From Minisyncoccota bacterium (lineage in GTDB: Bacteria > Patescibacteriota > Minisyncoccia > Minisyncoccales > GWA2-38-27), in contig JAQTZP010000004.1 in assembly GCA_028687715.1 (NCBI GenBank), forward strand, positions 25,751 to 89,750: DNA of 64,000 bases, given 5' to 3'. The position numbers were made by a program, and so were the translations under genes. The notes beneath the pieces are model-generated. The model had not been told where the DNA came from. It did no database searches and was given only the letters and a program-made list of their open reading frames with translations. Numbering within the stretch: position 1 is the stretch's first letter; the number at the start of each line of letters is the position of its first letter. Shown piece after piece: positions 4,383 through 59,245 of the stretch.

Positions 4383-4462
4383 AATTGATTTGCCTATGGC
4401 TATTATATCTCTTTTAGAAATAAATCACAAAAAAAGACGAGACAATGCTCGCCCTTTGAGTA

Positions 4463-6454: not shown

Positions 6455-6487
6455 CTAAATCGCTAAGGCGGTTTAGCTCTTTTTATT
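6455..6487 (+). terminator. Rho-independent terminator
   Basis: GCTAAA...TTTAGC stem followed by TCTTTTTATTT. Confidence 0.5.
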
Positions 6488-6543
6488 TAATAGAATAATA
6501 AAATATTTACAAAAGATTATTTATCTGCTAAACTCTTAATATT

Positions 6544-6807: not shown

Positions 6808-6821
6808 AAGAACTATTCTCT

Positions 6822-8632: not shown

Positions 8633-8639
8633 ATCTTGA

Positions 8640-9008: not shown

Positions 9009-9069
9009 ATTATTTTATTATTGATTTATATAATTTATTCTAACTTATTTTAAAAGGTCAGACAAGATA

Positions 9070-30430: not shown

Positions 30431-31780
30431 ATGACAAACGAAGAGCTTTGGCAAGGCGTTCTTGCCCAAATTCAATTGAATATCTCCCAGGCAAACTTTG
30501 CTACTTGGTTTAAAAATACTTCTATTGTTTCTCAAAAAGAAGGCAGGTTGTTAATCTCTGTGCCTAATTCATTTGTCAGAGAATGGCTTGAAAATAAATA
30601 CAATAAGCAGATATTTAAAATAATCCATAATTTAAACGAAGAGATTAAGGAAATCAAATACAGCGTTGGGAAGGCCTCGGAAAAAGCTGTTAAAAAGGCT
30701 TCTATAGACCTGCTTGAAAGCGACCAGCTTGAGTTCCAAGAACTTAAAATAGACAAAGAAACAAACCTTAATCCCAAATACATCTTTGATTCTTTTATAG
30801 TCGGCCCCTTCAATGAACTGCCCCACGCAGCCGCCTCAGCAGTAGCTGAAAATCCAGGATACATCTATAACCCTTTATTCATTTACGGAGGAGTGGGTCT
30901 TGGAAAAACTCATTTGCTTCAGGCAATAGGCAATGAAGTTGCAAAGAACTTTAAAACAAAAAAAGTAAGATATATTTCTTCTGAAAAATTCACTTCAGAA
31001 GTTGTATTGTCTATTAAAAACCATCAAATTGACTCTTTTAAATCAAAATACAGAGCCATTGACGTCTTAATAATAGATGATATTCAGTTTTTAGCAGGAA
31101 AAGAAAAGACTCAAGAAGAATTCTTCCATATTTTCAACGTCTTATACGAGAATAATAAGCAGATTATCCTTTCATCTGATTGTCCACCCAAAGCAATCCA
31201 CTCGTTAGCCGAAAGATTAAGATCCAGATTTGAAGGAGGAATGACAGCGGATATAAGCAATCCTGATTTTGAAACCAGAGTTGCTATTTTAAAAACAAAA
31301 GCTCAGGAAAAAAAGGTTGATTTTCCAATTGAAGTATATAATTATCTTGCTTCTTCTATTCAAAAGAACATCAGGGAATTAGAAGGAGCCTTAAACAGGC
31401 TTATTGCTTATCAAAAAATAAACAACAAGCAGCTGGATTTGGAAACCATAAAGATTATTCTTAAAAACGTTCTAATGAGTCCGGCTAAGGTTATCACCCC
31501 AAAGAAAATCATCCAAACCGTGGCTGAATTCTATGATTTAAAAGAAAAAGACATTTTAGACTGCTCCAGAAAAAAAGAGATTGTAAGACCGAGACAAATA
31601 GCAATGTATTTATTAAGAGAAGAATTAAAAAGCTCTTTCCCTTTTATCGGAAGAAAATTCCAGGGCAAAGACCATACTACTGCCATTCATTCGTATAAAA
31701 AAATAGCTAAAGAAATTGAAAAAGATAAAAAACTGGAAGAAGAAATAAGTTTAATTAAAGAAAGGGTTTTAAGCTCTTAG
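30431..31780 (+). CDS. dnaA: Chromosomal replication initiator protein DnaA
   Basis: AAA+ Walker A GGVGLGKTHLL; sensor motifs; C-terminal DnaA-box-binding domain (RPRQIAMYL...TAIHSY). Confidence 0.95.
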   Translation: MTNEELWQGVLAQIQLNISQANFATWFKNTSIVSQKEGRLLISVPNSFVREWLENKYNKQIFKIIHNLNEEIKEIKYSVGKASEKAVKKASIDLLESDQLEFQELKIDKETNLNPKYIFDSFIVGPFNELPHAAASAVAENPGYIYNPLFIYGGVGLGKTHLLQAIGNEVAKNFKTKKVRYISSEKFTSEVVLSIKNHQIDSFKSKYRAIDVLIIDDIQFLAGKEKTQEEFFHIFNVLYENNKQIILSSDCPPKAIHSLAERLRSRFEGGMTADISNPDFETRVAILKTKAQEKKVDFPIEVYNYLASSIQKNIRELEGALNRLIAYQKINNKQLDLETIKIILKNVLMSPAKVITPKKIIQTVAEFYDLKEKDILDCSRKKEIVRPRQIAMYLLREELKSSFPFIGRKFQGKDHTTAIHSYKKIAKEIEKDKKLEEEISLIKERVLSS

Positions 31781-31983
31781 AAGATGAGGAAAAAATGTTG
31801 ATAAGATTGTGGATTTAAAAGTGATAAAAATACAATAACTTTATCTATTAATTTATCCACAATTTATCTAATGTTTTTTAAAGGGAAAATTAGATATTAA
31901 TCCCCAATAAAACCTATATTAAAAACCTAAATTAAAACTTAACTTAATAATAATAAATTTTAATTAAAAACTAATAATTAATT
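31781..31983. promoter_or_regulatory. Candidate oriC core (dnaA-dnaN intergenic region) with DnaA boxes and an AT-rich unwinding region
   Basis: Perfect TTATCCACA at 31853-31861; degenerate boxes TTGTGGATT (31808-16), TTATCTATT and TTATCTAAT; about 100 nt of more than 85% AT sequence immediately before dnaN. Confidence 0.7.
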
Positions 31984-33114
31984 ATGAGATTATCAATTTT
32001 ACAAGAAAAACTAAAAGAAGGATTAAATATTGTTGAAAGAGTTTCTTCTAAATCTTTATCTCTTCCTATTTTAAACAATATCTTGATTTCTACTGAAAAG
32101 AATTTCTTAAATTTAGCTGCAACTGATTTAGAGGTGGGAATAAATTGGTGGGTCTTGGCTAAAATTGAAAAAGAAGGAAAAATTACAATTCCCAGTAGAT
32201 TATTTTCAAGTTTTATTAATCTTTTACCTAATAAAAAGATAGATATAAAGGAGGAAAAGAATAATATATTTATTGAGTGTGAGAATTATAATACTCAAAT
32301 TAAAGGAATTTCAGCTGATGAGTTCCCTATTATTCCTAAAATAAATGAAGGCGAATCAGTGTCTTTTGATATTAATTTATTTTGTCAAAGCGTTAACCAA
32401 GTAGTTGATATTCCGGTATTATCAACTACTAGACCTGAAATTTCAGGAGTTTATTTCTATTTTAATAAGAATTTAATAACAATTACTGCCACTGATAGTT
32501 TTAGATTGGGCGAAAAAAAGATATTTCTTAAAAACAGCTTTAATTTAAAAAAAGAATATTCTTTAATTATCCCCCAAAGAGCTGTAAAGGAAATTATTAA
32601 TATATTCGGAGAAAAAAAAGGAGAATTAAAGGTATATTTTTCAACAAACCAAATAATGTTTGAGTCTTTTATGGAAGAAACAGAGCATTCTCAGATTCAG
32701 CTTGTTTCCCGCTTAATTGAAGGAGAATATCCGAATTATAAGGAGATTATACCTTCAAAATATGCAACTCAAATTATCTTGGATAAGAATGAGTTTTTAA
32801 ACCAAATAAAAGCAGCCAGCTTGTTCAGCGGCAAGGCTAATGAAGTTAAAATAAAATCAGGATCTGGCGATAAAACAATAGAAATTTCCAGTCAAAGTTC
32901 AGAACTTGGGAGTAATAAATCTTTAATTCCTGCTAAAATCAAAGGAGAATCAGTAGATATTTCGTTTAATTATAGGTTCCTATTAGATGGTATTTTAAAT
33001 ATTAAAAGCTCAGAAATTATCTTTGAGCTAAACAGCGATTCAGGTCCCGGGGTATTAAAACCAGTAGGAGATGATAGTTATATCTACGTAGTTATGCCGA
33101 TAAAGGCAAGTTGA
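31984..33114 (+). CDS. dnaN: DNA polymerase III beta sliding clamp
   Basis: Length of about 376 aa with three-domain clamp-like periodicity, directly downstream of dnaA. Confidence 0.85.
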   Translation: MRLSILQEKLKEGLNIVERVSSKSLSLPILNNILISTEKNFLNLAATDLEVGINWWVLAKIEKEGKITIPSRLFSSFINLLPNKKIDIKEEKNNIFIECENYNTQIKGISADEFPIIPKINEGESVSFDINLFCQSVNQVVDIPVLSTTRPEISGVYFYFNKNLITITATDSFRLGEKKIFLKNSFNLKKEYSLIIPQRAVKEIINIFGEKKGELKVYFSTNQIMFESFMEETEHSQIQLVSRLIEGEYPNYKEIIPSKYATQIILDKNEFLNQIKAASLFSGKANEVKIKSGSGDKTIEISSQSSELGSNKSLIPAKIKGESVDISFNYRFLLDGILNIKSSEIIFELNSDSGPGVLKPVGDDSYIYVVMPIKAS

Positions 33115-34938: not shown

Positions 34939-37014
34939 TTATTTTTTAAATAAATCTCTTAATTTTTTAGGTTTACTTTTTGCGGGGGGCTGGGTTTGTT
35001 TTTTTTCAATTTCAACGCCTGGCGGTAGAATTATTCTTGATATTACCCCTTTTTCTTTTTCTTCTTTCCATCGTTGCAATATTTCGGGTTTAATTGTGAA
35101 CATGCTTTGACCCGCCTGGCTGGAAAAATAATTTTTAAGAGTTGGACTTATATTGGCTCCAGTATTAATTCTTTCTTCTATCTTCGAGGCTGCATTTTTT
35201 CCAAGATTTTCAATAAGCTTATCTATATGTTTACTAGTAGCATTAATTAATATTGCATCCATTACTTCGGTGCTTTCTATTGCTTGACTAGATATCTTTT
35301 CGTAATCAGCAGGTTTCATTTTTTTAATTGTTTCCATCATGTCGGCGCCTTCAAGCATATGAGGTATTGCCTTGTCAATAACCTTATTAGACTGCCATTT
35401 CTTAGCCGTTTCTCTTATTTTCTTAATTTCTGCATCAGTTATATTCCCTTTTTTAACAAAGTCATTAAAGTTTCCATCTTCTATAATTTGATTTAATATT
35501 CCTACTTTATCAGTTTCAATCTTTGCTTTGCGGTAGGCGGATAATTGGGTTTCTGCTGTTTTTCCTTTTATGCTTTCTTGAGTTTTTTTAATCTGTTCTC
35601 TTTGGCTTTCAGTCAAGCCTGGGCCCAAAGGAGTTGCTATTGCCCTTCCAAGAGCAACAAAAGGAGTGCTTACAGTTCTTTTAGCCCAGCCTCCAATTCC
35701 GGTTTGGTTTTGTCCCCACTTTCCTGCAGTAGCCATTCCTGTCGCTGCTTTCCTAACCGCTGCTGGCACCAATTGTTTTACTTTTCCTGCCGCATACTTT
35801 CCTGCTGCTCCTGCGGCCTTCCCCCCGGCCCATCCAGCAGCTTGCTTGCCCCTTCTTTTAAATGAGTCTATTATCGCGCCAGAGCCTATAGCAGAGGTTT
35901 TTAGCCCAAATACCAGTCCAAGGCCTAGAAAAGCTAAAGAGACGAAATAGCTGATAATTCTGGCCTTAAAGCCAACAACAGCAGTGCTTCCAAAATTTAT
36001 ATCCGGTGAGCTAGAATTTATATTAGGCCATATGTTTATAAAATAGTTTGCCATAGAAAAGAAGAAGGCGCAGGTTATTCCAATGGTGGCCCATTGGACA
36101 AACTGCGTCCACCATGTATTCCAATACTGCCTTGTATTGGGCAGAATATAGAGGGCAAAGGCAATTGGGGATAAGATAACCAGTATCATTATGGCAAAGT
36201 ATCTGAGCAGAAAAATAGCGGCAAATAACAGATAAATAAAGAAGGATATCAGGTATACAAAAATTAAGACAAATAATTGAATAATACCTGTTTTAAATGT
36301 TTCATAATTCCAATTGCTCCACATTTCATATGAAAGACAGTCTGGAAGACTGTATATTGGCCTGCCTTGATAATAATAACAGGCGCTTTGCTGTTCTATT
36401 ATTCCTGATTTCTGAAAAAGGAAATAATCCATAGTAATATTTGAGGCATCAACAATAAGTCCGCATATAACAGGAGCAAAGTTTATAAGCAGAGCAATAA
36501 CAATAAAAGTGTATAAGGTTTTTTTAGTCCTGTAGTTTTCCAGTCTTAGCATGGTTGCCAGTCCAATAAACACTAAAACTAAAGCAAGCACCATATTAAT
36601 AAGACCTCTGGTATATCCCAGCCCTATTGCGACTATAGGATTAGTGCCTGGATTGGTAAGCTGCATTTCTAAAAAGCCAGGACTTATTACCCATTGTACC
36701 AGCGAGATGCCGAGGTCTTTCAACATTTCAGCTATTTTAGCAAACAGCCAGAAAAACATAGCGAAAAGATACATTATCCATGCTTCAATAAAGCTAAGGG
36801 ATTTAGTTTCAGACACTTTTTGATTATTCAAATAGTCTGCATAAGCGCCTGTTGGCATAACTCCGCCTGGTCCTGGGACAATGGGAAAAACAGTGCCTGT
36901 GCCAGGATCAACAACCTGAGCATTAGCAAATGAAGACAGAACAAGGATTGCGCCTATTAAGCATAAAGAGAAAGAAATAAGAATCTTTTTTGGGTTTTTC
37001 AATTTCTTAAACAT
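34939..37014 (-). CDS. Large polytopic membrane protein with a signal peptide and a Gly/Ala/Lys-rich C-terminal tail; possible VirB6/TrbL-like component
   Basis: At least 8 predicted transmembrane helices in the N-terminal 400 aa; the C-terminus carries GKQAAGWAGGKAAGAAGKYAAGK repeats. The topology resembles TrbL/VirB6, but there is no motif-level proof. Confidence 0.35.
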   Translation of the reverse strand: MFKKLKNPKKILISFSLCLIGAILVLSSFANAQVVDPGTGTVFPIVPGPGGVMPTGAYADYLNNQKVSETKSLSFIEAWIMYLFAMFFWLFAKIAEMLKDLGISLVQWVISPGFLEMQLTNPGTNPIVAIGLGYTRGLINMVLALVLVFIGLATMLRLENYRTKKTLYTFIVIALLINFAPVICGLIVDASNITMDYFLFQKSGIIEQQSACYYYQGRPIYSLPDCLSYEMWSNWNYETFKTGIIQLFVLIFVYLISFFIYLLFAAIFLLRYFAIMILVILSPIAFALYILPNTRQYWNTWWTQFVQWATIGITCAFFFSMANYFINIWPNINSSSPDINFGSTAVVGFKARIISYFVSLAFLGLGLVFGLKTSAIGSGAIIDSFKRRGKQAAGWAGGKAAGAAGKYAAGKVKQLVPAAVRKAATGMATAGKWGQNQTGIGGWAKRTVSTPFVALGRAIATPLGPGLTESQREQIKKTQESIKGKTAETQLSAYRKAKIETDKVGILNQIIEDGNFNDFVKKGNITDAEIKKIRETAKKWQSNKVIDKAIPHMLEGADMMETIKKMKPADYEKISSQAIESTEVMDAILINATSKHIDKLIENLGKNAASKIEERINTGANISPTLKNYFSSQAGQSMFTIKPEILQRWKEEKEKGVISRIILPPGVEIEKKQTQPPAKSKPKKLRDLFKK

Positions 37015-37987: not shown

Positions 37988-39109
37988 ATGCTGCCTTTAT
38001 CTAATAATAAAGAGAATTTGCCTGTTGGAAGCGGCAATAAAAGGAATAAAAAGAAACGTAAAAGGGCTCTAAACCCTGTTTTTGTTAGCCTCTCATTCTT
38101 GTTTATTATCGTAATAGGAGTCTTGTTTTTTAAAGACAACAGCAATAAATCCCTTTTTGGACGGGATTTTTCTTTTTTGTCAGCAAACGCAAAAGATATA
38201 ATTTACTCCCAAAGATTATTTGTGGAACCGGCTAAAAATATTGTAAGTGATTCGCCTGATATAAATTTTGTTCAGGATAACAGTATAGCTAGAATTTGCC
38301 CTCCTGTTTCATTTAACCCCCAGTCTTTAGGCACTATTTTAGGGGAAGTGGATGTCGGCTCTGATATTGACGGCGAGATAAGGGAATACGTTGTTGAAGC
38401 AGGCGATACCCTTTCTTCTATTGCCCAGAAATTCAACATATCTCAGGAAACAATATTGTGGGCTAATAATCTAAAGAGCAAATCTGATATCAAGAATAAT
38501 CAGAAGCTTATAATCCTTCCAGTGTCCGGAGTCCTTCATATGGTAAAAGACGGAGATACTGTCGGTTCCATTGCCAAGGTCTACGGGTCAAGCTCGAAAG
38601 AGGTAGTTGATTTCAATAATTTGTCTGATGAAGGAAATATCTATATCGGAGATATTTTAGTTGTTCCCGGAGGAAAGGTGCCTCAGAAATCAGCGCCTTC
38701 GGTCCCTTCAATCCCCTTGGCTGATTCTTACTTTATCTTTCCCTGCGAAGGAACTATCAGTCAGGGCCCTCACGGCTCCTTCTTTAGCGCCATTGATATA
38801 GCCAATCAATGCGGCAAAATAGTTGTTGCCGCTGCCGGAGGAGTTGTTCAGAAGACGGGGTATATAAAAGTGGGAGGCAATATGGTGAATATCCTTCATC
38901 CGAACGGAGTTGTAACCTATTACGGACACCTTTCAAAAACAGCTGTGGCTCCCGGTCAGACAGTTGGAGCAGGAGATATAATAGGGTATATAGGAAATAC
39001 AGGCTATACTATCGGAGGCACTGGATGCCATCTCCACTTTGAAGTAAGGGGAGCAAAGAACTTTTTATCGCAGTATCCGGTAGGCACTTGCTTGAGCTGG
39101 AGGAAATAG
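37988..39109 (+). CDS. LysM-domain M23 family metallopeptidase (cell-wall hydrolase)
   Basis: An N-terminal transmembrane segment; two LysM repeats (YVVEAGDTLSSIAQKF, HMVKDGDTVGSIAKVY); M23 motifs HPNG...YYGH and CHLHFEV. Confidence 0.8.
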   Translation: MLPLSNNKENLPVGSGNKRNKKKRKRALNPVFVSLSFLFIIVIGVLFFKDNSNKSLFGRDFSFLSANAKDIIYSQRLFVEPAKNIVSDSPDINFVQDNSIARICPPVSFNPQSLGTILGEVDVGSDIDGEIREYVVEAGDTLSSIAQKFNISQETILWANNLKSKSDIKNNQKLIILPVSGVLHMVKDGDTVGSIAKVYGSSSKEVVDFNNLSDEGNIYIGDILVVPGGKVPQKSAPSVPSIPLADSYFIFPCEGTISQGPHGSFFSAIDIANQCGKIVVAAAGGVVQKTGYIKVGGNMVNILHPNGVVTYYGHLSKTAVAPGQTVGAGDIIGYIGNTGYTIGGTGCHLHFEVRGAKNFLSQYPVGTCLSWRK

Positions 39110-39209: not shown

Positions 39210-39647
39210 ATGAAAAAATCATTATTGATTATTTTTTTGATATTTACTGGATTATTATTTTTTACCAGTTCTGTTTCAGCTGCAGGAACAAATTGCCCGA
39301 CAGGACTGGTTCCCTGCGGTACAAGCGGCTGTCCCTGCACTCTGTGCGATTTTTTTGTAATGTTTAATAGGATTTTTGTATTCTTTCTTTATCCGCCGCC
39401 AATAGGAGGCGGAATTGTATTAGGCATTGCCATCCTAATGATTACATACTCTGGTTTTCTGTTTATGACCGCTTATACAGGATTGGCTGGAGATCCTCAA
39501 GGAGCTTTTTCAAGGGCAAAGCAGGTAATCATCTATACCATAATCGGGCTTTTAATAGTATACGGGGCTTGGATAATACTGCATACCTTTTTCTATCTTA
39601 TCGGTTTTAATAGATACGGAAGCTGGTATCAGGTTAACTGCCAGTAA
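39210..39647 (+). CDS. VirB2/TrbC-like pilin candidate with a Cys-rich N-terminal segment (paralog of 28133..28480)
   Basis: Signal peptide; CPTGLVPCGTSGCPCTLC; then two hydrophobic helices with YSGFLFMTAYTGLAGDPQGAFSRAKQVIIYTIIGLLIV, which resembles the core of the 28133 protein. Confidence 0.45.
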   Translation: MKKSLLIIFLIFTGLLFFTSSVSAAGTNCPTGLVPCGTSGCPCTLCDFFVMFNRIFVFFLYPPPIGGGIVLGIAILMITYSGFLFMTAYTGLAGDPQGAFSRAKQVIIYTIIGLLIVYGAWIILHTFFYLIGFNRYGSWYQVNCQ

Positions 39648-39720
39648 GCCCTCATAGCTCAATTGGCAGAGCAGATCCCTCTTAAGGATAAGGTTCCAGG
39701 TTCGACTCCTGGTGGGGGCA
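39648..39720 (+). tRNA. tRNA-Lys (anticodon CTT), no encoded CCA
   Basis: Cloverleaf read by hand: acceptor GCCCTCA/TGGGGGC with one G.U pair; D-arm GCTC-AATTGGCA-GAGC; anticodon loop CT-CTT-AA; T-arm CCAGG-TTCGACT-CCTGG. Confidence 0.7.
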
Positions 39721-39847: not shown

Positions 39848-40111
39848 ATGTTGTCGTTAGAAGAAAAAAACAAAATTATCCAAAAATACAAAATTCATGA
39901 TAAAGACAGCGGTTCAAGCGAGGTTCAAATCGCTCTTTTTACCGAAGAGATAAAAAAGCTTCTTTCTCATTTAAAAAAGAACTCTAAAGACCTTCATTCA
40001 AAAAGAGGGCTTTTGGGTATGGTTTCTAAAAGAAGAAAGCTTTTAAAGTATCTAAAAAAAGAAGACGAGAAAAGGTACAAAGAGATATTGAAGAAAATAG
40101 GACTTAAATAA
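39848..40111 (+). CDS. rpsO: 30S ribosomal protein S15
   Basis: MLSLEEKNKIIQKY...GSSEVQIALFTEEIKKLLSHLKKN.KD.HS.RGLL is a canonical S15 sequence. Confidence 0.9.
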   Translation: MLSLEEKNKIIQKYKIHDKDSGSSEVQIALFTEEIKKLLSHLKKNSKDLHSKRGLLGMVSKRRKLLKYLKKEDEKRYKEILKKIGLK

Positions 40112-40115: not shown

Positions 40116-40619
40116 ATGGTTATAAAGCACATAGGTCAAAAAGTTGCGGTTTTAATAGATGTTCAGAATCTTTATCATTCAGCAAAAAACCTTTATCAGG
40201 CAAGAGTTAATTTTCAGGAGGTTTTAAAATTAGCAGTCAGTAAAAGGAATCTAATTAGGGTTTTTGCCTATGTTGTTAGAACAAAAACAGGAGAGGAAAA
40301 GCCTTTCTTTGAAGCGCTTACAAAACTTGGCATTGAAACAAGAATTAGAGATTTGCAGGAATTCTACGGCGGACAGAAAAAAGCTGACTGGGATGTTGGA
40401 ATTGTAATAGACGCAATTAGGATTGCTTCAAGCGTTGATACTATAATTTTAGCCTCAGGAGACGGAGATTTTATCTCTTTGGTGGAATATCTTAAAAACC
40501 AGGGGAAAAGAGTAGAGGTAATGGCTTTCGGCAGGTCTGCTTCGTCTCATCTAAAAGAAGTAGCTGATGAATTTATAGATTTAGGAGAAACTCCCTCAAA
40601 GTTTTTATTTAAAAAATAG
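40116..40619 (+). CDS. NYN-domain (LabA-like, PIN-related) protein
   Basis: VAVLIDVQNLY...ILASGDGDF are conserved acidic NYN/LabA residues. The gene lies between rpsO and pnp. Confidence 0.65.
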   Translation: MVIKHIGQKVAVLIDVQNLYHSAKNLYQARVNFQEVLKLAVSKRNLIRVFAYVVRTKTGEEKPFFEALTKLGIETRIRDLQEFYGGQKKADWDVGIVIDAIRIASSVDTIILASGDGDFISLVEYLKNQGKRVEVMAFGRSASSHLKEVADEFIDLGETPSKFLFKK

Positions 40620-40622: not shown

Positions 40623-42728
40623 ATGAAGTTCAACTTAGAAATAAACAACAAGAATTTAGAGGTAGAATATAATAATTTGGCAGAACAAGCAAACGGCAAT
40701 GTTATGGTTTCTTTGGGCGACACAGTAGTTTTAGCCACTTCCGTAATGTCTAAAGAAGAAAGGGAGAATTTAGGTTTTTTCCCTTTAACAGTGGAATATG
40801 AAGAAAAATACTATGCTGCTGGGAAAATAAAAGGCTCCCGATATATCAAGCGCGAGAGCAGGCCTTCTGACGAAGCAATCTGCAACGCCCGCTTGATTGA
40901 TAGGGCAATCAGGCCTCTTTTTGACAAGGATTTATCAAGAGAGGTTCAGGTTATAGCAACTGTTTTATCCTGGGATAATGAAAACGACCCTGATGTCTTA
41001 GCCCTTATATCCTCTTCTTTATCTTTGGCAATTTCTGATATCCCTTGGCAGGGCCCTGTCTCTGCGGCAAGGGTGATTAAAACCAAAGACGGCAGATTTA
41101 TTCTAAACCCAAGCTATGAAGAAAGAGAAAACAGCGAACTGGATATTGTTTTTGCCGCTGTTTTAAGAGACAAAGAAATCCTTATTAATATGATAGAAGG
41201 AGGAGCTGATGAAGCAGACGAGGAATCAGTATTGAAAGCTTTTGACCTATCCCGCGATTACTTGGAAAAACTGATTGAATTTCAAAAAGAAGTTGCAGAA
41301 AAAATAGGAAAGGAAAAGATAAAAATAGAGAAATATGAACCTGAGGAGTCTTTTAGGAATAAAATGAGGGAGATATTGGCTGACAGATTGGAAAAAGCTC
41401 TTTTTCAAAAGGACAAAGATAAAAGGGCTCAAGATGTAAATCTTTTAAAACAGGAATTTATTTCAACCCTTTTGGAATCAGAAACAGATTCAAATAAGAT
41501 TAAGTTTGCTAAAAAGTTCTTTGATGAGGAGATTGACAATCTGGTTCATCTAAACGCAATAAAGCATAACAAGAGAGTTGACGGCAGAAAACTCGACGAG
41601 CTTAGAGAAATAAGCTGCGAGGTCGGGTTGTTAAAACGGGCTCACGGTTCAGCTCTTTTTTCCCGAGGACAGACAAAATCTTTATCTATACTAACCCTGG
41701 GCGCTCCCGGAGACCAGCAGCTGTTGGAAGGAATGGAGATTGTAGGCAAGAAAAGATTTATGCATCATTACAATTTTCCTCCTTATTCTACTGGAGAAGT
41801 AAAACCAGTAAGGGGCCCGGGCAGAAGAGAGATTGGGCATGGCATGCTGGCTGAAAAAGCAATTCTGCCTCTAATTCCCTCTGTTGACGAGTTTCCCTAT
41901 ACTATTCGTTCTGTTTCAGAGATGCTTTCTTCAAACGGCTCTACCTCAATGGCTTCTGTCACAAGCACTTCTTTAGCTTTAATGGATGCCGGGGTTCCCA
42001 TCAAGAACCCTGCTTCAGGCATTGCCATCGGTCTTATGCAGGACCTTGAAACAGAAGAGTTCAAGGTTTTAACTGATATCCAGGGTCCTGAAGACCATCA
42101 TGGAGACATGGATTTTAAAGTTGCCGGAACCGAAAAAGGCATTACTGCTATTCAGCTTGATGTAAAGATTTGGGGGATTAACAAAGAAATTATGAAAGAG
42201 GCGCTTTCTAGAGCTAAGAAAGCGAGGCTTGAAATACTTAATAAAATGAAAAAAGTCATATCCGGCCCCAGATCCGAGCTTTCTCCTTTTGCTCCAAGGA
42301 TTTTAACCATGCAGATAAATCCAGAGAAAATAAGGGAGGTAATAGGCCCGGGCGGTAAAATAATAAATGCTATTATCGCTGAGACCGGAGTTTCAATCGA
42401 TATTCAGGATTCAGGCCTTATCTTTATTACTTCAGATAAAGAAGAAACTGCCAATAAAGCTCTTGAATGGATAAAAAACATCACAAAAGAGGTAGAGGTT
42501 GGAGAAGTTTTTACAGGGAAAGTAAAAAGAATATTGGAATTCGGCGCCTTTGTAGAGATTCTGCCTGGCCAGGAGGGCATGATTCATATTTCTAAATTAG
42601 GCCAAAAGACCAGGGTAAAGAAGGTAGAAGATGTATTAAAAATTGGAGATAATGTATCTGTAAAAGTTATTTCTATTGACGAGCAGGGAAGGATAAACTT
42701 AACTCTTTTAAAAAAGGAGAACAAATAG
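40623..42728 (+). CDS. pnp: Polyribonucleotide nucleotidyltransferase (PNPase)
   Basis: Two RNase PH domains, a KH domain (IREVIGPGGKIINAI) and a C-terminal S1 domain (GEVFTGKVKRILEFGAFVEI). Confidence 0.95.
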   Translation: MKFNLEINNKNLEVEYNNLAEQANGNVMVSLGDTVVLATSVMSKEERENLGFFPLTVEYEEKYYAAGKIKGSRYIKRESRPSDEAICNARLIDRAIRPLFDKDLSREVQVIATVLSWDNENDPDVLALISSSLSLAISDIPWQGPVSAARVIKTKDGRFILNPSYEERENSELDIVFAAVLRDKEILINMIEGGADEADEESVLKAFDLSRDYLEKLIEFQKEVAEKIGKEKIKIEKYEPEESFRNKMREILADRLEKALFQKDKDKRAQDVNLLKQEFISTLLESETDSNKIKFAKKFFDEEIDNLVHLNAIKHNKRVDGRKLDELREISCEVGLLKRAHGSALFSRGQTKSLSILTLGAPGDQQLLEGMEIVGKKRFMHHYNFPPYSTGEVKPVRGPGRREIGHGMLAEKAILPLIPSVDEFPYTIRSVSEMLSSNGSTSMASVTSTSLALMDAGVPIKNPASGIAIGLMQDLETEEFKVLTDIQGPEDHHGDMDFKVAGTEKGITAIQLDVKIWGINKEIMKEALSRAKKARLEILNKMKKVISGPRSELSPFAPRILTMQINPEKIREVIGPGGKIINAIIAETGVSIDIQDSGLIFITSDKEETANKALEWIKNITKEVEVGEVFTGKVKRILEFGAFVEILPGQEGMIHISKLGQKTRVKKVEDVLKIGDNVSVKVISIDEQGRINLTLLKKENK

Positions 42729-42759
42729 AAATTAAGCCTCTAGTCTCTCTTTTATTTTC

Positions 42760-45525
42760 ATGAAAGAAGATTTCTTGAAAACAGGGAATATAATAACAAT
42801 GGAAAAAGACATTGCCCGTCTTGAGGGCAGGGAGATTAAAAGACCCTCTGCTCCTGTTTTTATTGAACCCGAAGTTGTCAAAGCTAAGCCGGATAAAAAA
42901 AAAGAAGAAAAAAAGAAAGAAGAGGAAATCTTAGAAAACCAATTAAAAGAAAAAAGAAGGATAGAAGCGCTTCTAAAAGAAGAAGAGGAAAAGAGGCAAA
43001 AAGAGGAAAGACAAAAAATAATTGAAGAAGAAAAGAAAAAGCAGGAGATTAAGAAAAAAGAAGAAGAGGAAAGGATAAGGATTGAAGAAGAGAAAAAAAG
43101 ACAGGAAAAAGAAGCGCTGATAAGAGAGAGGGAAAAGGAACAGGAGATAAAGCGGATTGAAGAGGAAAAGAAAATCAGGGAAAAGATAAAGACAGAAGAA
43201 GAAGAAAGATTAATGGCAGATCCCAAAAAGAAAAGAGAGGCTCTTCTTGTCCAGCTGGAAGGGTTTAAAAAACAAAAAAACGAGATAAACAGAGAGCTTG
43301 AAAGATTTACAGTAGAAGAAAAACCTTTAAATAACAGAAAAGCAATACTCTTGAAAGAAATAGAAAGCATCAAGAAGGGTTTTGACCTTATCGCTGAGAG
43401 AGAAAAAAAGATAGAAGAAGAAGAAAGAGGGCTTGAAAGAAAAGAAGAAGAGGCTGTAGAGGCAAGAGATAGAAGAAAGCTGGAAAAAGAAAGATGGAGG
43501 ATAGAAGAAAAGAGGCAGGATCTTGAAAAGAAAAGATGGCCTTGGGACGAAAGGCTTAAAAATCTAAGCGATAAGATAGAAGAGATTGATATAGAGCTTA
43601 AAAGTATAGAGAATAAGGGATCTGGGTTTAGAAAGAAGGAGAAAGATATCAAGAAATCAGAAGACAATATCCGTCTTCAGATTGAGATAATTGATTTAAT
43701 AGAGGAGTCAAAGAAAATCGAAGAGCTTAAAAAGGTTGTCGCAGAGAAAAAGAACGAGCTTTTAAGCAGTTTAGATGGCTTTGATGAAAGAATTAAAGAT
43801 ATTTCAGATAAAGAAAAAGAAGTTGAAGAGGAAAAGAAGATAATTGAAAGCGAGGAGGAGACAAGCTCTGATTTTGAAAAAAGAAAAGAATTAGAACAAA
43901 AAAGATGGCAGATTGGAGAGGAAAGAAGGGGTATTGAAAAGCAAAGATGGCAGATTGAGGAGGAAAAAGAAAAAGTAGAGGATAATATCAAAAGAAGCGA
44001 AGAGAGATTCCAGAGTTTGATAAATAGAGCAAGCAGAATAATAGAGAGAAAGAAAGAAATTGAGAGAATTCTAACAGGAAAAGAACCCGAAGAAGAGGAA
44101 AAAAAGATAGAGAAAAAACCTGCTCTAAAACCTGTTGTTTTAGAGAAGCCAATCACTAAAGATAAAAAACCTGTTGAAGAACCTTTGATTTTAAAAGAAA
44201 AAGATGAAAAGCCTGAAGTATTTGATGAAAAGATTGAAGAAGCTAAAAAAAGAATTGCCGCTTTAAAAGACAGCCAAAAGGGGTCAGTTCAGAAGTGGGA
44301 GGACGAAGAAAGAAAAAGAGTGGAAAAAGAGGTTCTTGAAGAAAAAAAGAAGGCAGAGTTTTTGAAGATGGAGGAGGAAAGAAGAAAAGAGATTCTTTCG
44401 CGCTTGGAGGAAAAAGAAGTTGAGTTTGAAAAAGTTGAACCCATAGCAGCTTCTCCTCCTTTGAAAAAAGCTGTTTTAGAAAGAGATAAGGTTCCTAAAA
44501 AGACAACTTTTAAAGAAAAGCTTTGGGTAAGATTTTTAATATTCTCTTTTATCTTTACAATTTTAGCCGCAGTTGCAACTTTTTGGTACTGGTATCTCGT
44601 AGTAAATAGAAAGATTGTTGTTTTCCCTGACTCTGGAGGACCTCAAGAGGAAGCTGTTTTGCCTGAAGAGGAAGAATTAGAAGCTGGCTTGCCTGCTTCT
44701 ATTTTTTCCGCAGAAGAAACTAAAGTTATCAGCATATCTTCTTCAAATGAGTTAAGCGATTTAATAAAGCAGACTCTCGGCCAGTGGCATAATATAGAGC
44801 GTTTTAAAAGGATAGTAATAAAAGATGCAAAAGAGAATAAGATCCTCAATTTCAGAGAATTTCTGAATCATCTGAACATAGAGCTTCCTGAAAGCTTTTA
44901 TAGTATAATAGGAGACAAGTTCACTTTATTTATTTTCTCTCAAGCAGAAGGAAATAGAATCGGATTCGTGGTTGATATAGCCGATAAAAACAGAATGTCT
45001 TCTTTTCTTTCTTCAAGAGAGTCATCATTAAAACAGGACTTTAATCCTTTATACTCTCTAATGATAAATAATAATCCTGTTCTAAGCTCCCAATTCAAGA
45101 ATTCTTCTTCTGTAAGAGGTTATGTTGGTCTTAATTTCAGGTACCTGACTCTGGGGAAAGAAGATTTAGGTCTTTGCTATATTATCACTGATAATTATTT
45201 AGCCTTTACCAGCTCCTGGAACAGCGCTGTAAAGGTAATGGAAAGATTAAATATTGCTGGTTCTTCGGCAAAGATTGATAAAAATCTTAAGTACGGCGAT
45301 ACCGGAGAAGAGGTAACCCTTCTTCAATCATGGCTGGCTCAAGACTCTGTTATTTTCCCTGAGAAGATAATAAGCGGCATATTTGGAGATTCTACCAAAA
45401 GAGCCGTGATTCGCTTTCAGGAAAAATACGCTTCAGAGATTTTAGCCCCTCAGGGTCTTACCAGCCCAACTGGCGAAGTTGATTCTTTAACCAGGGAAAA
45501 ATTAAATGAGATTTATGGAAAATAA
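42760..45525 (+). CDS. K/E/R-rich coiled-coil protein (about 570 aa, cytoplasmic) with a single transmembrane helix and a C-terminal putative peptidoglycan-binding domain
   Basis: Extreme E/K/R low complexity with recurring E[KQ][KE]RW[RQ]IEE motifs (KERWRIEEKRQDLEKKRWPWDE; EQKRWQIGEERRGIEKQRWQIEEEK). Transmembrane helix LWVRFLIFSFIFTILAAVATFWYWYLVV. PGBD-like C-terminus (LKYGDTGEEVTLLQSWL...TKRAVIRFQEKY). Confidence 0.6.
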   Translation: MKEDFLKTGNIITMEKDIARLEGREIKRPSAPVFIEPEVVKAKPDKKKEEKKKEEEILENQLKEKRRIEALLKEEEEKRQKEERQKIIEEEKKKQEIKKKEEEERIRIEEEKKRQEKEALIREREKEQEIKRIEEEKKIREKIKTEEEERLMADPKKKREALLVQLEGFKKQKNEINRELERFTVEEKPLNNRKAILLKEIESIKKGFDLIAEREKKIEEEERGLERKEEEAVEARDRRKLEKERWRIEEKRQDLEKKRWPWDERLKNLSDKIEEIDIELKSIENKGSGFRKKEKDIKKSEDNIRLQIEIIDLIEESKKIEELKKVVAEKKNELLSSLDGFDERIKDISDKEKEVEEEKKIIESEEETSSDFEKRKELEQKRWQIGEERRGIEKQRWQIEEEKEKVEDNIKRSEERFQSLINRASRIIERKKEIERILTGKEPEEEEKKIEKKPALKPVVLEKPITKDKKPVEEPLILKEKDEKPEVFDEKIEEAKKRIAALKDSQKGSVQKWEDEERKRVEKEVLEEKKKAEFLKMEEERRKEILSRLEEKEVEFEKVEPIAASPPLKKAVLERDKVPKKTTFKEKLWVRFLIFSFIFTILAAVATFWYWYLVVNRKIVVFPDSGGPQEEAVLPEEEELEAGLPASIFSAEETKVISISSSNELSDLIKQTLGQWHNIERFKRIVIKDAKENKILNFREFLNHLNIELPESFYSIIGDKFTLFIFSQAEGNRIGFVVDIADKNRMSSFLSSRESSLKQDFNPLYSLMINNNPVLSSQFKNSSSVRGYVGLNFRYLTLGKEDLGLCYIITDNYLAFTSSWNSAVKVMERLNIAGSSAKIDKNLKYGDTGEEVTLLQSWLAQDSVIFPEKIISGIFGDSTKRAVIRFQEKYASEILAPQGLTSPTGEVDSLTREKLNEIYGK

Positions 45526-45544: not shown

Positions 45545-45919
45545 ATGAATAAAAAAACCATTAAAGAGCTTAAAGAGAAGCTTGAAAAGCAAAAATCAGA
45601 TATAGAGTCTGAGCTTTTAAAATTTGCCAAAGAGGATAAGAAAATCAAGGGAGACTGGGATACAAAATATCCCAGAACTGATGGAGGAACAGGAAGCCAG
45701 ACAATGGAGGATGCGGCTGACCAGGTAGAAGAATATGCCAATTTACTGCCGGTAGAGCATAGTCTAGAGCTAAGACTGAAGGATATAAATTTTGCCTTGG
45801 AAAAAATTAAAAAGAATAAATACGGAAAATGCGAAAAATGCAAAAAGCAGATTGACGAGGAAAGATTAAAAGTTTATCCAGAGGCAAGGTTCTGCGCTAA
45901 TTGTCCTAAAAAAAGATAA
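45545..45919 (+). CDS. DksA/TraR family C4-type zinc-finger protein
   Basis: A coiled-coil N-terminus and CEKCKKQIDEERLKVYPEARFCANC (CxxC-N17-CxxC). Confidence 0.65.
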   Translation: MNKKTIKELKEKLEKQKSDIESELLKFAKEDKKIKGDWDTKYPRTDGGTGSQTMEDAADQVEEYANLLPVEHSLELRLKDINFALEKIKKNKYGKCEKCKKQIDEERLKVYPEARFCANCPKKR

Positions 45920-45951: not shown

Positions 45952-46024
45952 TGCCCCCGGAAGGATTCGAACCCTCAACTAGGCGTCCGAAGCGCCTCGT
46001 GTTGTCCAGTTATACCACAGGGGC
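45952..46024 (-). tRNA. tRNA-Arg (anticodon TCG), no encoded CCA
   Basis: The minus-strand sequence GCCCCTG...GGTTCGAATCC...CGGGGGCA has an anticodon arm AGGCG-CTTCGGA-CGCCT. The D-stem has one A.C mismatch. Confidence 0.6.
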
Positions 46025-47561: not shown

Positions 47562-47633
47562 ACGGAGCGTAATATAACGGCAGTATACACCCTTCGGGAG
47601 GGTGCGGTCTGAGTTCGATTCTCAGCGCTCCGA
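47562..47633 (+). tRNA. tRNA-Pro (anticodon CGG), no encoded CCA
   Basis: Acceptor CGGAGCG/CGCTCCG; anticodon arm CACCC-TTCGGGA-GGGTG with G37; T-arm CTGAG-TTCGATT-CTCAG. The D-arm is slightly irregular. Confidence 0.65.
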
Positions 47634-51878: not shown

Positions 51879-51961
51879 TTATAATATTATCATTCCAAAA
51901 TCTTATGTCAATAGCAGGTTGCTTTTTAGATCAAAAAATGATATTGTTTAAAGATAGAATT

Positions 51962-52032
51962 GGGCCTTTAGTTTAACGGCAAAACACGGCATTCGCATTG
52001 CCGGGATGGCGGTTCAATTCCGCCCAGGTCCA
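51962..52032 (+). tRNA. tRNA-Ala (anticodon CGC), no encoded CCA
   Basis: G3.U70 wobble identity element in the acceptor stem; D-arm GTTT-AACGGCA-AAAC; anticodon arm CGGCA-TTCGCAT-TGCCG; T-arm GGCGG-TTCAATT-CCGCC. Confidence 0.75.
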
Positions 52033-52036
52033 TAAT

Positions 52037-56838: not shown

Positions 56839-57615
56839 ATGAGAAAGATGGTTAAGCCAGAATCTATAGCATTGTATGTTATCAAAAATATACCGCTTAT
56901 TAGGGCGGGTGATAACCTTGGTGTAATAATTGCTAATTGTATTCAGAAGCAAGATATGTTAATTTTAGATAGAGATATTCTTGTTATTGCACAAAAAGTT
57001 GTTTCTCGCGCCGAGAATAGAATGGTTCTATTAAGTAAAGTTATACCTTCTCAGGAAGCTAATTATCTTGCGTCAAAAACTAGACGCGATCCCCGGTTAT
57101 GCCAGTTGATCCTTGATCATAGTAGAGTTTTGTACTGTAACGATAAAGCCATCATTACCCAAGATCGATTAGGCATTGTCAGCACAAGTGCTGGTATTGA
57201 TCGTTCGAATTCTGATTCGCCAGAAGGAGAAATAGCAATATTACTTCCTGAAAACCCCGATTTAAGTGCCCGGAGAGTTCGAGACAAAATTAAGGAAATA
57301 ATGGATGTGAATGTGGCCGTGATAATAAGCGATAGCTTAGGTCGACCTTGGCGCGAAGGATCGGTTGGTATGGCGATCGGTTTAGCTGGTATTAAAGCAA
57401 TCGAAGCTACTGAAAAAAGAGACTTAAGTGGTCGAGTTATTCATCCCGAAATTGCTTTGGTTGATAGGGTTGCCGCCGCTGCATCTATTTTGATGGGAGA
57501 AGCAGATGAGGGCTATCCTGTTATTATTGTTCGGGGAATAAATTACACGCCATCCGATACAGTAAAAATCAGAGATCTTCTTCGTCCAGCCGAAGAAGAT
57601 CAGGTATGGGAATAA
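56839..57615 (+). CDS. CofE-like (F420-0:gamma-glutamyl ligase family, PF01996-like) protein
   Basis: IALVDRVAAAASILMGEADEGYPVIIVRG resembles the conserved CofE C-terminal motif (..AAAAEL.MGKA.EG.PVV.VRG). Length is about 250 aa. AAGGAG RBS; the likely start is ATG 56848. Confidence 0.55.
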   Translation: MRKMVKPESIALYVIKNIPLIRAGDNLGVIIANCIQKQDMLILDRDILVIAQKVVSRAENRMVLLSKVIPSQEANYLASKTRRDPRLCQLILDHSRVLYCNDKAIITQDRLGIVSTSAGIDRSNSDSPEGEIAILLPENPDLSARRVRDKIKEIMDVNVAVIISDSLGRPWREGSVGMAIGLAGIKAIEATEKRDLSGRVIHPEIALVDRVAAAASILMGEADEGYPVIIVRGINYTPSDTVKIRDLLRPAEEDQVWE

Positions 57616-57664: not shown

Positions 57665-59245
57665 ATGCAAATTTGTAAAAAAACTAAGATAGCCTTAGTA
57701 AATCCGAATAATCGAGGTTCTTACAGGTCAAATTATTTAACAAGAGAGAATTTAGGATTAGGCTATCTTGCATCCTGGCTTATCAAAAATAATTGTGAAG
57801 TTAGAATTTATGACGCAAGGTTGGAGAAAAAAGGACCAGATATCATAGCAAAAGATATTCTTTCTTTCGGTCCAGATGTTGTGGGAGTTTCTTTAATAGT
57901 TAAAGAAGCAAGTTATTGGACCAGAAGATTAACCGAATATTTAAAAGATGGCGGAATAAAAGCTCAAATAGTTATGGGAAATTATTTTCCTTCTCTTCAG
58001 CCAAAAAGAGCTTTAGATTTAATTCCTGAGGCTAATTATATAGTTAAAGGAGAAGGGGAGCTTTCACTTCTTGGACTGGTTCAAAGGATTAATAAAAAAA
58101 GAAACTTAACTGGCATAGAGGGGATTTTTATCAAAAATAAGATAGGAAAAATTTATTTTACTGGAAGAGGGAAATTAATATCAAATTTAGATTTTTTACC
58201 ATTTCCTTATCGTTATGCAGATGAAAACCAAATAACTGAAATATCAATAGAAGGATCTAGGGGATGTTTTTATAATTGTACTTTTTGTGCAATACCTTGT
58301 CATTTTGACGCTGATCCTCGATATAAATGGAGAGCAAGATCCGCCGATCATATTATCGCAGAAATAATCCAACTTAGAAAGAGATACCCAAATATTAATA
58401 TTTATCGTTTTGTTGATCCAGATTTTATAGGTTATAAAAAAACAGGAGAAAAACGAGTACTTGAGTTTGCTAAATTGGTTATAAAACATCGGCTTGATAT
58501 CAAATTTTATATCGAGACAAGATCTTCTAATGTAGAAGATATAAAATTATGGGAAATTTTAAAAAAAGCTGGATTAAGACAAGTTTATATTGGAGTTGAA
58601 ACAGGAAGTCCAAAAATAAAGAGAATGATGGATAAAAAATCCTATTTTTTTCAAGATGAAAAAGCTATAGCACTGTTAAGAAGTATAGGAATAAATACTC
58701 AATATGGATTTATGATGTTTACCCCTTGGACAACAGAAAAAGATATTTTACTTAATATTAGATTTATCAAACAAATTGGTTATGCTGGTTTAGATAAATT
58801 TTTTCAAGAAATGAATCTTGTTCCAGGTACAAAGGCTTTAGAATTAGCACAGGAAATAGAAACGATTTTTCCAGACGGGGATACTGGTTATTATACTTAT
58901 AACTTACCTCCAATAGTTGATCGTTTAAGAAAAATAGGAAGAATGTTTGAGGATGCTAAATATGTCTATTTTCTTGAAAGAATTTGGTTTTTATATAAAG
59001 ATATACAGTATCTTAGTCAATTAGGAATAAGCAAAACAGATATTTTTAAAAATAATTTAAATGATCTTAATTTCCATGTTTTTACCTTTTGTTTAAAAAG
59101 TGCCAGAAAAGCAAAATCAAGCGACGATAATATTCTTATTTCTATCGTTGAACAATGTATAGAAAAATTTATTCCCAAGATTAAATTATTAGAAGAAAAA
59201 TTAAATCTAAAAATACATTTTCTAACAGATATTGGACATCGTTAA
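57665..59245 (+). CDS. B12-binding (class B) radical SAM protein
   Basis: CFYNCTFCAIPC contains CxxxCxxC, with an N-terminal cobalamin-binding-like domain. This is the third such paralog in the window. Confidence 0.75.
   Translation: MQICKKTKIALVNPNNRGSYRSNYLTRENLGLGYLASWLIKNNCEVRIYDARLEKKGPDIIAKDILSFGPDVVGVSLIVKEASYWTRRLTEYLKDGGIKAQIVMGNYFPSLQPKRALDLIPEANYIVKGEGELSLLGLVQRINKKRNLTGIEGIFIKNKIGKIYFTGRGKLISNLDFLPFPYRYADENQITEISIEGSRGCFYNCTFCAIPCHFDADPRYKWRARSADHIIAEIIQLRKRYPNINIYRFVDPDFIGYKKTGEKRVLEFAKLVIKHRLDIKFYIETRSSNVEDIKLWEILKKAGLRQVYIGVETGSPKIKRMMDKKSYFFQDEKAIALLRSIGINTQYGFMMFTPWTTEKDILLNIRFIKQIGYAGLDKFFQEMNLVPGTKALELAQEIETIFPDGDTGYYTYNLPPIVDRLRKIGRMFEDAKYVYFLERIWFLYKDIQYLSQLGISKTDIFKNNLNDLNFHVFTFCLKSARKAKSSDDNILISIVEQCIEKFIPKIKLLEEKLNLKIHFLTDIGHR

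Follow-up and report, generated by a model that had tools for sequence, protein, structure and literature searches.

The window considered here, a stretch of 64,000 nucleotides (nt), comes from an uncultured Nealsonbacteria-like bacterium of the Candidate Phyla Radiation (CPR) that is deposited as a Minisyncoccota bacterium (GenBank assembly GCA_028687715.1, contig JAQTZP010000004.1, positions 25,751 to 89,750 of the forward strand). Directly downstream of pnp it carries a gene for a protein of 921 amino acids (aa) that belongs to a widespread CPR family. Comparison with relatives indicates that this protein is the one-chain version of two genes, A and B, which are separate in several sister species, and its parts are predicted to reach from the cytoplasm to the cell wall. 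The parts are listed below by window position (AF2, AlphaFold2; TRF, Tandem Repeats Finder).

42760..45525, + strand: whole gene, 921 aa, ATG start; gene A (cytoplasmic rod) fused to gene B (transmembrane helix and ectodomain)
42772..42831, + strand: conserved N-terminal peptide FLKTGNIITMEKDIARLEGR, aa 5-24; family consensus [FY]LK+x[DE]IRTMKKDIARL
42880..43215, + strand: E/R/K-rich spacer, aa 41-152, recognised by composition; length varies among homologues
43216..44079, + strand: double RW module, aa 153-440, two hairpin-like repeats of ~137 aa, from AF2, internal duplication and homologues
43486..43557, + strand: RW pair 1, KERWRIEEKRQDLEKKRWPWDERL (W246, W260), just past the first helix turn
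43897..43968, + strand: RW pair 2, QKRWQIGEERRGIEKQRWQIEEEK (W383, W397), just past the second helix turn; TRF period 21 at 43901-43966
44080..44229, + strand: P/K/E-rich linker, aa 441-490, 14% G+P, equivalent to the gene A/gene B junction of split genomes (by comparison with locus L002)
44230..44268, + strand: helix motif KIEEAKKRIAALK, aa 491-503, common to the cytoplasmic part of separate B proteins
44440..44520, + strand: basic juxtamembrane segment, aa 561-587, net charge +5, cytoplasmic side
44521..44595, + strand: transmembrane helix LWVRFLIFSFIFTILAAVATFWYWY, aa 588-612, with a conserved FWYWY aromatic end
44680..45294, + strand: extracytoplasmic alpha/beta domain (ECD), aa 641-845, ~205 aa, after an acidic linker
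45301..45504, + strand: PG_binding_1 domain (PF01471), aa 848-915, from Pfam, Foldseek and PDB profile matches
42732..44156, - strand: two antisense S/F/L-rich open reading frames (42732-43667 and 43677-44156), not genes, from a codon-shuffle control and purine skew

The gene is real. It starts 31 nt past the pnp stop codon (42728) and ends 19 nt ahead of a DksA/TraR-type gene, which bears out the original prediction of a 921-aa open reading frame (ORF) immediately behind pnp. The alternative is an artefact: the frame might be open by chance in purine-rich DNA of low complexity, or two genes might have been joined by misassembly or a frameshift. An artefact would account for the open frames on both strands of the purine-rich half, and an apparent frameshift split is known within the family (locus L014, below). 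Against it, the frame continues unbroken through the compositionally unbiased transmembrane, ECD and PG_binding_1 parts, and homologue matches cover residues 5 to 921, from the N-terminal motif through the C-terminus. An independent assembly, Logan SRR22315506, contains the identical protein, the fused architecture occurs in at least seven species loci, and the RW module and a transmembrane helix share one chain in 97 of the 149 best RW-module representatives, the set on which all architecture counts given here are based. Because of the identical Logan protein, the recurring fused loci and these RW-transmembrane chains, an artefact is essentially excluded. A start at M14 was rejected because homology reaches further upstream (FLK...). 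No Shine-Dalgarno sequence is visible ahead of the ATG.

The antisense ORFs had been called artefactual, and the codon-shuffle control and purine skew agree. The sense strand is 75% purine across the region, and when the sense codons are shuffled the antisense strand stays open for 270 +/- 91 aa, with 30% of the shuffles at or above the 305 aa seen here. The unbiased C-terminal half has no antisense run longer than 117 aa. Because shuffles of so purine-rich a strand reach equal runs, the antisense ORFs are rejected as genes and taken as compositional artefacts.

The cytoplasmic half is rich in charged residues (aa 41-570: E 26%, K 20%, R 9%). To that extent the ~570 aa of charged low-complexity coiled coil in the original prediction were recovered; the half appears to be a composite of several distinct parts (N-terminal peptide, E/R/K spacer, structured RW module and linker) rather than uniform low complexity or coiled coil. 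By heptad register, hydrophobicity of a/d positions is 63-64% at aa 153-231 and 372-440, 22% at aa 41-152, and 29-40% elsewhere.

Within the N-terminal peptide the T, M and D of the family consensus are invariant. The core motif, [ILV]xT[MLYF]xxD[ILVM], reads IITMEKDI at aa 11-18 and is found in 28 of 31 proteins encoded directly after pnp, as well as in most RW-module representatives. As a regular expression it matches once in the window, and across 40 related loci, ~0.5 Mb in all, its matches are restricted to family genes; a profile search with the motif as query returned three tiny fragments. Distant-lineage B-type genes (L039:3511-3975 and L040:2354-2767) hold a copy of their own, SLRTFEGDV, in the cytoplasmic part, so the motif is not restricted to A proteins.

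The spacer that follows consists of 71% E+K+R, with 38% i/i+4 opposite-charge pairs, 17% large hydrophobics and, even in the best heptad register, 22% hydrophobic a/d positions. These are the features of ER/K single alpha-helices (more than ~70% E+K+R, closely spaced i/i+4 opposite charges and no seam of hydrophobic residues), and in composition the spacer looks like such a helix rather than a coiled coil. The distance from the N-terminal motif to the first RW motif is highly variable among homologues.

The RW module contains an ungapped internal duplication of 125 aa (score 180, compared with 84 +/- 10 for shuffles). Its four RW motifs, ERWRIEE, KRWPWDE, KRWQIGE and QRWQIEE, lie at W246, W260, W383 and W397, and the spacing of the tryptophans, 14/123/14, is kept across loci and representatives. 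The KRWxIEE repeats noted originally are therefore present as four motifs; they are landmarks of a duplicated domain and not a simple repeat. Since the two tryptophans of a pair are 14 residues (two heptads) apart, they would be expected on the same helix face. An AF2 model of the fragment aa 150-445, built on three sequences, has three long helices (fragment residues 6-82, 86-219 and 223-290) with a mean predicted local distance difference test score (pLDDT) of 90.9 and a predicted TM-score (pTM) of 0.57. In protein numbering the helices span aa ~155-231, 235-368 and 372-439, with turns at ~232-234 and ~369-371. An exhaustive phmmer search with the RW region against 1.84 billion representative proteins (clusters at 50% identity) matched 184 clusters at E<=1e-3 (58 of them at <=1e-10, 13 at <=1e-30), in alignments that extend over the full length with hardly an indel (for example, query 5-289 against target 248-532). 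These matches indicate that the module is a real domain of fixed length (~285 aa) conserved across the CPR. Pfam and NCBIfam searches with it were empty, and Foldseek of the model against PDB gave generic long-helix matches only (axonemal proteins, Rad50, the Cg1735 coiled coil), all at E>0.1.

Between the RW module and the membrane lie the linker, the helix motif of the KIEEAKKRIAALK type, which a regular expression matched in 41 of 191 family proteins, and the basic juxtamembrane segment, where RPxPKKPSxxEKLW is conserved in the C-terminal alignment of the family.

The transmembrane helix is the sole hydrophobic segment (Kyte-Doolittle peak 2.26; AF2 helix at fragment residues 12-43), and its aromatic end, F36, W37, Y38 and W39 in alignment numbering, is nearly invariant in the family. 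The N-side flank has a net charge of +5 and the C-side flank one of -5, on which basis the predicted topology is N-in/C-out. The reversed topology was rejected: besides this charge asymmetry, the protein has no signal peptide, its N-terminal 587 residues are highly charged, and its C-terminal domains are of wall-directed types. The predicted extracytoplasmic region, aa 613-921, has 309 aa. A single transmembrane helix, an outer region of about 310 aa and a C-terminal domain of peptidoglycan-binding type had all been predicted, and all three are upheld, the last by the proposed search with hidden Markov models (HMMs), in which PG_binding_1 scored above its gathering cut-off (28.6 bits with the full protein and 31.5 with the fragment, against 23; profile positions 1-57 of 57).

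The AF2 model of aa 573-921 has a mean pLDDT of 83.8, and its C-terminal domain superposes in Foldseek on the N-terminal peptidoglycan-binding domain of SleB (6tci) with a target-normalised TM-score of 0.86, a root-mean-square deviation of 2.4 A and probability 1.00. Further matches are 9h68, 4c2c and 1lbu (SleC, CtpB and a Streptomyces Zn DD-peptidase) and the peptidoglycan-binding domains of phage endolysins. The domain is thus a predicted peptidoglycan binder, binding being what we infer from profile and fold. A Pfam scan found no catalytic domain in the window protein; such domains are present in orthologues.

The ECD has the predicted order beta-alpha-beta-alpha-beta-beta-alpha-beta-beta-beta-alpha, mostly at pLDDT 86-95. 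Pfam was empty for it in 23 family members even at E<=5, as was a PDB sequence-profile search, and Foldseek against PDB and BFVD gave nothing significant. Faint Foldseek matches at E 0.25-0.5 (DcrB 6e8a, PA94 1tu1, EagT6 6xrf and TM1622 1vr8) hint at a Mog1/PsbP-like fold, a lead from the model and not evidence. That the ECD is a diverged Amidase_2 domain was rejected (hhalign probability 0.1%; no PGRP or amidase among the Foldseek matches). In an alignment of 72 sequences, conservation reaches >=90% at E754, F779 and G804 alone, and these residues look structural rather than catalytic.

The order of genes around the protein is as follows.

39848-40111, + strand: rpsO (Pfam)
40116-40619, + strand: gene for an NYN-domain protein (Pfam)
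40623-42728, + strand: pnp (Pfam)
45545..45919, + strand: DksA/TraR (YteA-like) C4 zinc-finger gene (Pfam, NCBIfam)

A scan of GTDB species representatives yielded 33 loci, from metagenome-assembled genomes labelled Candidatus Nealsonbacteria, Paceibacterota, Parcubacteria or Patescibacteria; many third-party-annotation (TPA) assemblies among them are titled Saccharibacteria. With X for the gene or A-B pair after pnp, the order (T4SS-pilin-like)-rpsO-NYN-pnp-X-DksA-like is kept wherever the contig reaches, in these 33 species loci and in the distant locus L038. The check proposed originally, whether the gene follows pnp in relatives also, was made in this way, and it does. The window PNPase is 58-70% identical to those of related loci. 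A DksA-like gene follows X in every locus that extends past X (31 of 33), and also in L037 and L038; in L026 a rearranged short ORF with a transmembrane segment stands ahead of it. Relatives usually also have an M23/LysM peptidase and the CCA enzyme in the neighbourhood. No terminator-like site was found on the + strand between pnp and the target gene. The traits of the family as defined in this analysis, which we call IRTM-RW, are all present in the window protein: the N-terminal motif, RW pairs spaced 14/123/14, and the position between pnp and a DksA-like gene.

A search with the C-terminal 346 aa recovered the family at 33-52% identity, with the same transmembrane helix (FWYWY) and ECD and with 0, 1 or 2 copies of PG_binding_1; the cytoplasmic N-termini of the members found in this way differ. 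Sequence comparison indicates that the PG_binding_1 domain is an optional add-on. Single-gene fused forms with it are the window protein, L006 (1096 aa), L012 (1281 aa), L013 (1095 aa) and L023 (944 aa), and fused forms without it are found in L015, L017 and L019. A and B are two genes in nine species-representative loci (L002/L007 on one contig, L004, L005, L008-L011, L027 and L014). Gene A encodes 450-515 aa with the N-terminal motif, a K/E spacer and the double RW module, and no transmembrane helix. Gene B encodes ~600 aa, comprising a duplicated unit of ~30 aa (SIxxARxRGxxDxxILxEIxxQNP), a KRIEALK helix, the transmembrane helix, the ECD and two PG_binding_1 copies; some B proteins also hold a Cys-rich DUF7107 insert. 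In L002, where the two genes are at 6485-7990 and 8001-9818, gene A aligns motif for motif with aa 1-440 of the window protein.

In eight of the nine split loci, an A protein ending in SDLDFK[ILF]-COOH occurs together with the duplicated unit at the N-terminus of B. The SDLDFK[ILF] motif is absent from fused proteins in a regular-expression search, and the duplicated unit, for which Pfam and NCBIfam searches were empty, was seen only at the N-termini of B proteins from split loci. This complementary pattern suggests that the terminal peptide of A may bind the unit of B and so rebuild the fused architecture non-covalently. The ninth locus, L014, has an A part at 1444-3231 and a B part at 3206-5131, which overlap in different frames and are without the SDLDFK end and the B unit; it looks like a fused-type gene whose frame has shifted, through a sequencing error or in a pseudogene. 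At similar PNPase distance, relatives of fused and of split type are intermixed; therefore fusion or fission happened more than once, or recently.

The part outside the membrane is exchanged among positional orthologues that share the N-terminal motif, the transmembrane helix and the synteny: it may be Amidase_2 (L024, L029, L031), Amidase_2 with Glyco_hydro_3 (GH3; L028, L030), ECD with GH3 (L018), SH3_3 (L025, L034) or PG_binding_1. Short forms of X without the RW module occur in L020-L022. Counted over the RW-module representatives, the architectures are transmembrane helix with ECD (53), with ECD and one PG_binding_1 (13) or two (5), with ECD and GH3 (7), with ECD and Amidase_2 (2), with GH3 (1), Amidase_2 (1) or SH3_3 (1), with a C-terminal part of unidentified type (2), transmembrane helix only or truncated (12), and no transmembrane helix (52). 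Thus 97 have a transmembrane helix, of which 85 have an ectodomain and 80 the ECD. A distant A protein without a transmembrane helix is found in L038, where the order is rpsO-NYN-pnp-A-B'-DksA-like and B' has a transmembrane helix and a remote ECD (27 bits against the ECD HMM). The order in L039 and L040 is pnp-A-B, and in L037 the DksA-like gene directly follows an RW protein (A), with no B gene.

These features would fit an N-in/C-out, single-pass (bitopic) tether that couples a CPR-specific cytoplasmic helical rod, or an assembly bound to it, to the peptidoglycan layer. We put the probability of this reading at roughly 0.55. Inside the cell, a docking-type N-terminal peptide (IxTMxKDI) would be followed by a variable spacer resembling a single E/R/K helix (~110 aa, at most ~16 nm as a continuous helix), a double hairpin of fixed length marked by the two RW pairs, in which the longest helix would measure ~134 aa or ~20 nm, and finally the linker and the basic stretch before the membrane. 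Outside, the novel alpha/beta domain would be followed by PG_binding_1, which would hold the protein on the wall. In split species A and B would probably re-associate through the terminal SDLDFK[ILF] peptide of A and the duplicated, helical N-terminal unit of B. The outside slot of orthologues holds peptidoglycan hydrolases (Amidase_2, GH3) or wall binders (SH3_3); the likely job of the family would therefore be the placing or immobilising of wall-directed modules relative to a cytoplasmic assembly, possibly in wall growth, division or an envelope machine, with the window version as a non-catalytic anchor. The organism makes peptidoglycan, as judged from a Mur ligase, a class A penicillin-binding protein and an M23/LysM peptidase encoded in the window. 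In favour of the reading is also the conservation of the C-terminal half in the family, at 33-49% identity with the FWYWY end nearly unchanged.

Several points weigh against the tether. The RW module and the ECD have no counterpart in Pfam, NCBIfam or PDB and no characterised homologue, and the few invariant ECD residues give no clue to a ligand. With its three-sequence basis and a pTM of 0.57, the rod model leaves the packing of the helices uncertain. The strict linkage to rpsO-NYN-pnp and the DksA-like gene could indicate RNA or transcription biology. Furthermore, since 52 of the listed representatives have no transmembrane helix and L037 has no B gene, the wall link is not universal and is not the conserved core of the family. 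The cytoplasm-to-wall scaffold of the original prediction therefore stands in part: because the outside modules of positional orthologues are peptidoglycan-directed, the link itself is strengthened, and "scaffold" is retained as a putative role.

The linkage is the starting point for a different explanation, in which the protein would be a membrane scaffold for RNA processing or transcription, its rod recruiting PNPase, the NYN nuclease and/or the DksA-like protein in the manner of RNase E or RNase Y, with a secondary role for the ectodomain. The gene order is invariant with gaps of 3-31 nt and without a terminator-like site after pnp, it persists in distant relatives at 25-32% identity, and RW proteins without a transmembrane helix exist. 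Pfam and NCBIfam scans, however, found no RNA-binding or nuclease domain in the protein, an RNA scaffold leaves unexplained why the variable part of the family is consistently peptidoglycan-directed, and housekeeping operons of reduced genomes often combine unrelated functions; we consider this explanation unlikely. Membership in an anti-phage defence system was rejected, since PADLOC matched 0 defence families for the target and its DksA-like neighbour.

Other explanations keep the wall link and differ in its purpose. A tentative extension of the tether, in which we place rather little confidence, would make the A/B pair a CPR-specific envelope organiser: the N-terminal peptide would dock an actin-like ATPase of the PilM/FtsA class or another core machine, the RW double hairpin would serve as a ruler, and the ectodomain would fix or remodel the wall above the machine. 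The narrower proposal of an organiser for a pilus or secretion machine like PodJ or FimV, in which the RW rod would work with a PilM/FtsA-type ATPase docked by the N-terminal peptide while the peptidoglycan-bound ectodomain fixes the machine, has several points in its favour. Two RW proteins, P0203 and P0219, are fused N-terminally to PilM_2 (108-120 bits), which is followed by a PilN peptide (GINLLPEE) and a transmembrane helix, with SH3_3 in P0219; both are without the IRTMxxDI motif, which would be dispensable where a covalent link takes the place of docking. In the window and most loci rpsO is closely preceded by a T4SS_pilin-like gene; genes of TrbL-like, TraG-like and PilB-like (T2SSE) type are present in the window or the loci; and PodJ, whose parts come in the same order, functions in pilus biogenesis (bioRxiv 10.1101/503250; PMC10127582). 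On the other hand, the PilM fusion is limited to 2 representatives among the 149 listed, no gene for PilM or FtsA adjoins the locus in the window, and the neighbouring pilin is of the type IV secretion system (T4SS) type and not of type IV pili. We regard the proposal as doubtful. A platform for muropeptide salvage or wall turnover, on which peptidoglycan-degrading or -binding modules would harvest fragments of the cell's own wall or that of a host, with the window protein as a binding-only version and the rod as a stalk or oligomeriser, appears very unlikely. Orthologues do carry Amidase_2 with GH3, and ECD with GH3, and the Amidase_2-GH3 pairing serves extracellular MurNAc recycling in Bacillus (NagZ/AmiE). 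Archaea are without peptidoglycan, which counts against salvage from a host. Nealsonbacteria have been proposed as biomass recyclers, in favour of salvage, and the host of the cultured Nealsonbacteria is the archaeon Methanothrix (bioRxiv 10.1101/2022.04.20.488981). Moreover, 53 plus 18 of the 85 ectodomain-bearing members have no catalytic domain, and the strongly conserved N-terminal motif and fixed-length module argue for a specific intracellular partner.

Several observations concern the neighbourhood of the gene. The NYN (LabA-like nuclease) gene always lies between rpsO and pnp, in the window with gaps of 3-4 nt on each side; rpsO-NYN-pnp is a CPR-specific variant of the universal rpsO-pnp operon. 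The DksA-like protein scores under the NCBIfam cut-offs for DksA and YteA, and its tip sequence, EDAADQV, resembles the DxxDxA motif of DksA. The block from rpsO to the dksA-like gene is bracketed by tRNA-Lys upstream of rpsO and tRNA-Arg downstream; the tRNA genes are Lys-CTT (39648-39720), Arg-TCG (45952-46024, - strand), Pro-CGG (47563-47633) and Ala-CGC (51961-52033). Just upstream of tRNA-Lys and rpsO are the T4SS_pilin-like gene, which contains Cys (39210-39647, + strand), and a gene for an M23 peptidase with two LysM domains (37988-39109, + strand), both of which travel with the locus in most relatives. A 691-aa ORF (34939-37014, - strand) has no Pfam match; a 776-aa gene at a comparable site in L002, by ksgA, matches TrbL_3. 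The genes dnaA and dnaN (30431-33114, + strand) are ~10 kb upstream, as in L002, so the locus is near the presumed replication origin.

Elsewhere the window encodes three paralogous B12-binding radical SAM proteins within the 64 kb (341-1837 and 4463-6001, - strand; 57665-59245, + strand). It also has two further genes recorded here for a CPR genome, for an archaeal-type S-adenosylmethionine synthetase (PF01941; 60372-61685, + strand) and for an F420-0:gamma-glutamyl ligase-like protein (56839-57615, + strand). A 1421-aa ORF (15493-19758, - strand) whose sole Pfam match is Ig_Rha78A_N adjoins a gene with two Lamin Tail Domains (14241-15428, + strand); both are probably large surface proteins.

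CPR bacteria, or Patescibacteria, make up a large share of bacterial diversity, and the organisation of their envelope, division and surface machines is almost uncharted. The family comprises at least 184 clusters at 50% identity, is strongly syntenic and is specific to CPR-type genomes. It adds two domains without a described or solved counterpart, the RW double hairpin and the ectodomain, and a sharply conserved N-terminal peptide. From fusion or fission and ectodomain swapping it is predicted that A binds B, that the N-terminal peptide binds a cytoplasmic partner and that the ectodomain binds sacculi, and the family could give access to CPR cell biology in the few co-cultures that exist. 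Ultra-small bacteria may lack some positioning systems known from model bacteria; if the organiser reading were true, the family would represent a system, so far overlooked, that positions division or pili in such cells, of greater interest still if the partner of the N-terminal peptide were a division or pilus ATPase.

No description of the family was found in the literature on coiled-coil proteins, cell division or peptidoglycan in Nealsonbacteria and Patescibacteria, and the preprint on Nealsonbacteria DGGOD1a mentions only three putative peptidoglycan-binding proteins. The closest parallel in layout is PodJ of Caulobacter crescentus, which has cytoplasmic coiled coils, a disordered region, a transmembrane helix, periplasmic repeats and a peptidoglycan-binding domain, is the organiser of pili, an envelope machine, and brings in clients from the cytoplasm (bioRxiv 10.1101/503250; PMC10127582). 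The window protein shares with it a long cytoplasmic N-terminus that is probably rich in coiled coil, a charged or disordered linker, one transmembrane helix and an outer C-terminus ending in a peptidoglycan-binding domain. Unlike PodJ, it has the novel ECD in place of periplasmic TPR-type repeats, its cytoplasmic part consists of the IxTMxKDI peptide, the E/R/K helix and the RW double hairpin, and it belongs to another phylum with pnp/dksA-like synteny. Pfam scans of the protein (E<=1) and of 23 relatives (E<=5) detected no TPR or other family besides PG_binding_1, PodJ being compared in layout and without direct alignment. MapZ (LocZ) of Streptococcus is likewise bitopic and N-in; its cytoplasmic N-terminus binds FtsZ and its extracellular C-terminus binds peptidoglycan and so fixes its position (PMC4931243; PMC7055233). 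The N-in layout and the peptidoglycan-directed outer domain are common to both proteins, whereas the cytoplasmic part of MapZ is largely disordered and has no long helical rod, MapZ has no PG_binding_1, and no MapZ Pfam domain was found in the window protein at E<=1.

FimV, HubP and TspA combine a peptidoglycan-binding domain and one transmembrane helix with an extensive cytoplasmic region of high charge, through which pili or polar machines are organised. Their parts come in the reverse order, with an N-terminal LysM domain outside and an acidic cytoplasmic C-terminus; the window protein has no LysM. By HMM and fold its last 70 residues are a genuine member of the group found in SleB, SleC, CtpB, the Zn DD-peptidase and phage endolysins; in all of these this domain targets an enzyme of the same chain, and the window protein has none. 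The spacer is like the ER/K single alpha-helices of, for example, myosins, a resemblance of composition. Since no homology beyond PG_binding_1 was detected and the defining domains of PodJ and MapZ are absent, the protein is not counted as a member of either group; it appears to be like them in layout without being homologous. It is not surprising in kind, because bitopic peptidoglycan-anchored scaffolds are known from PodJ, MapZ and FimV.

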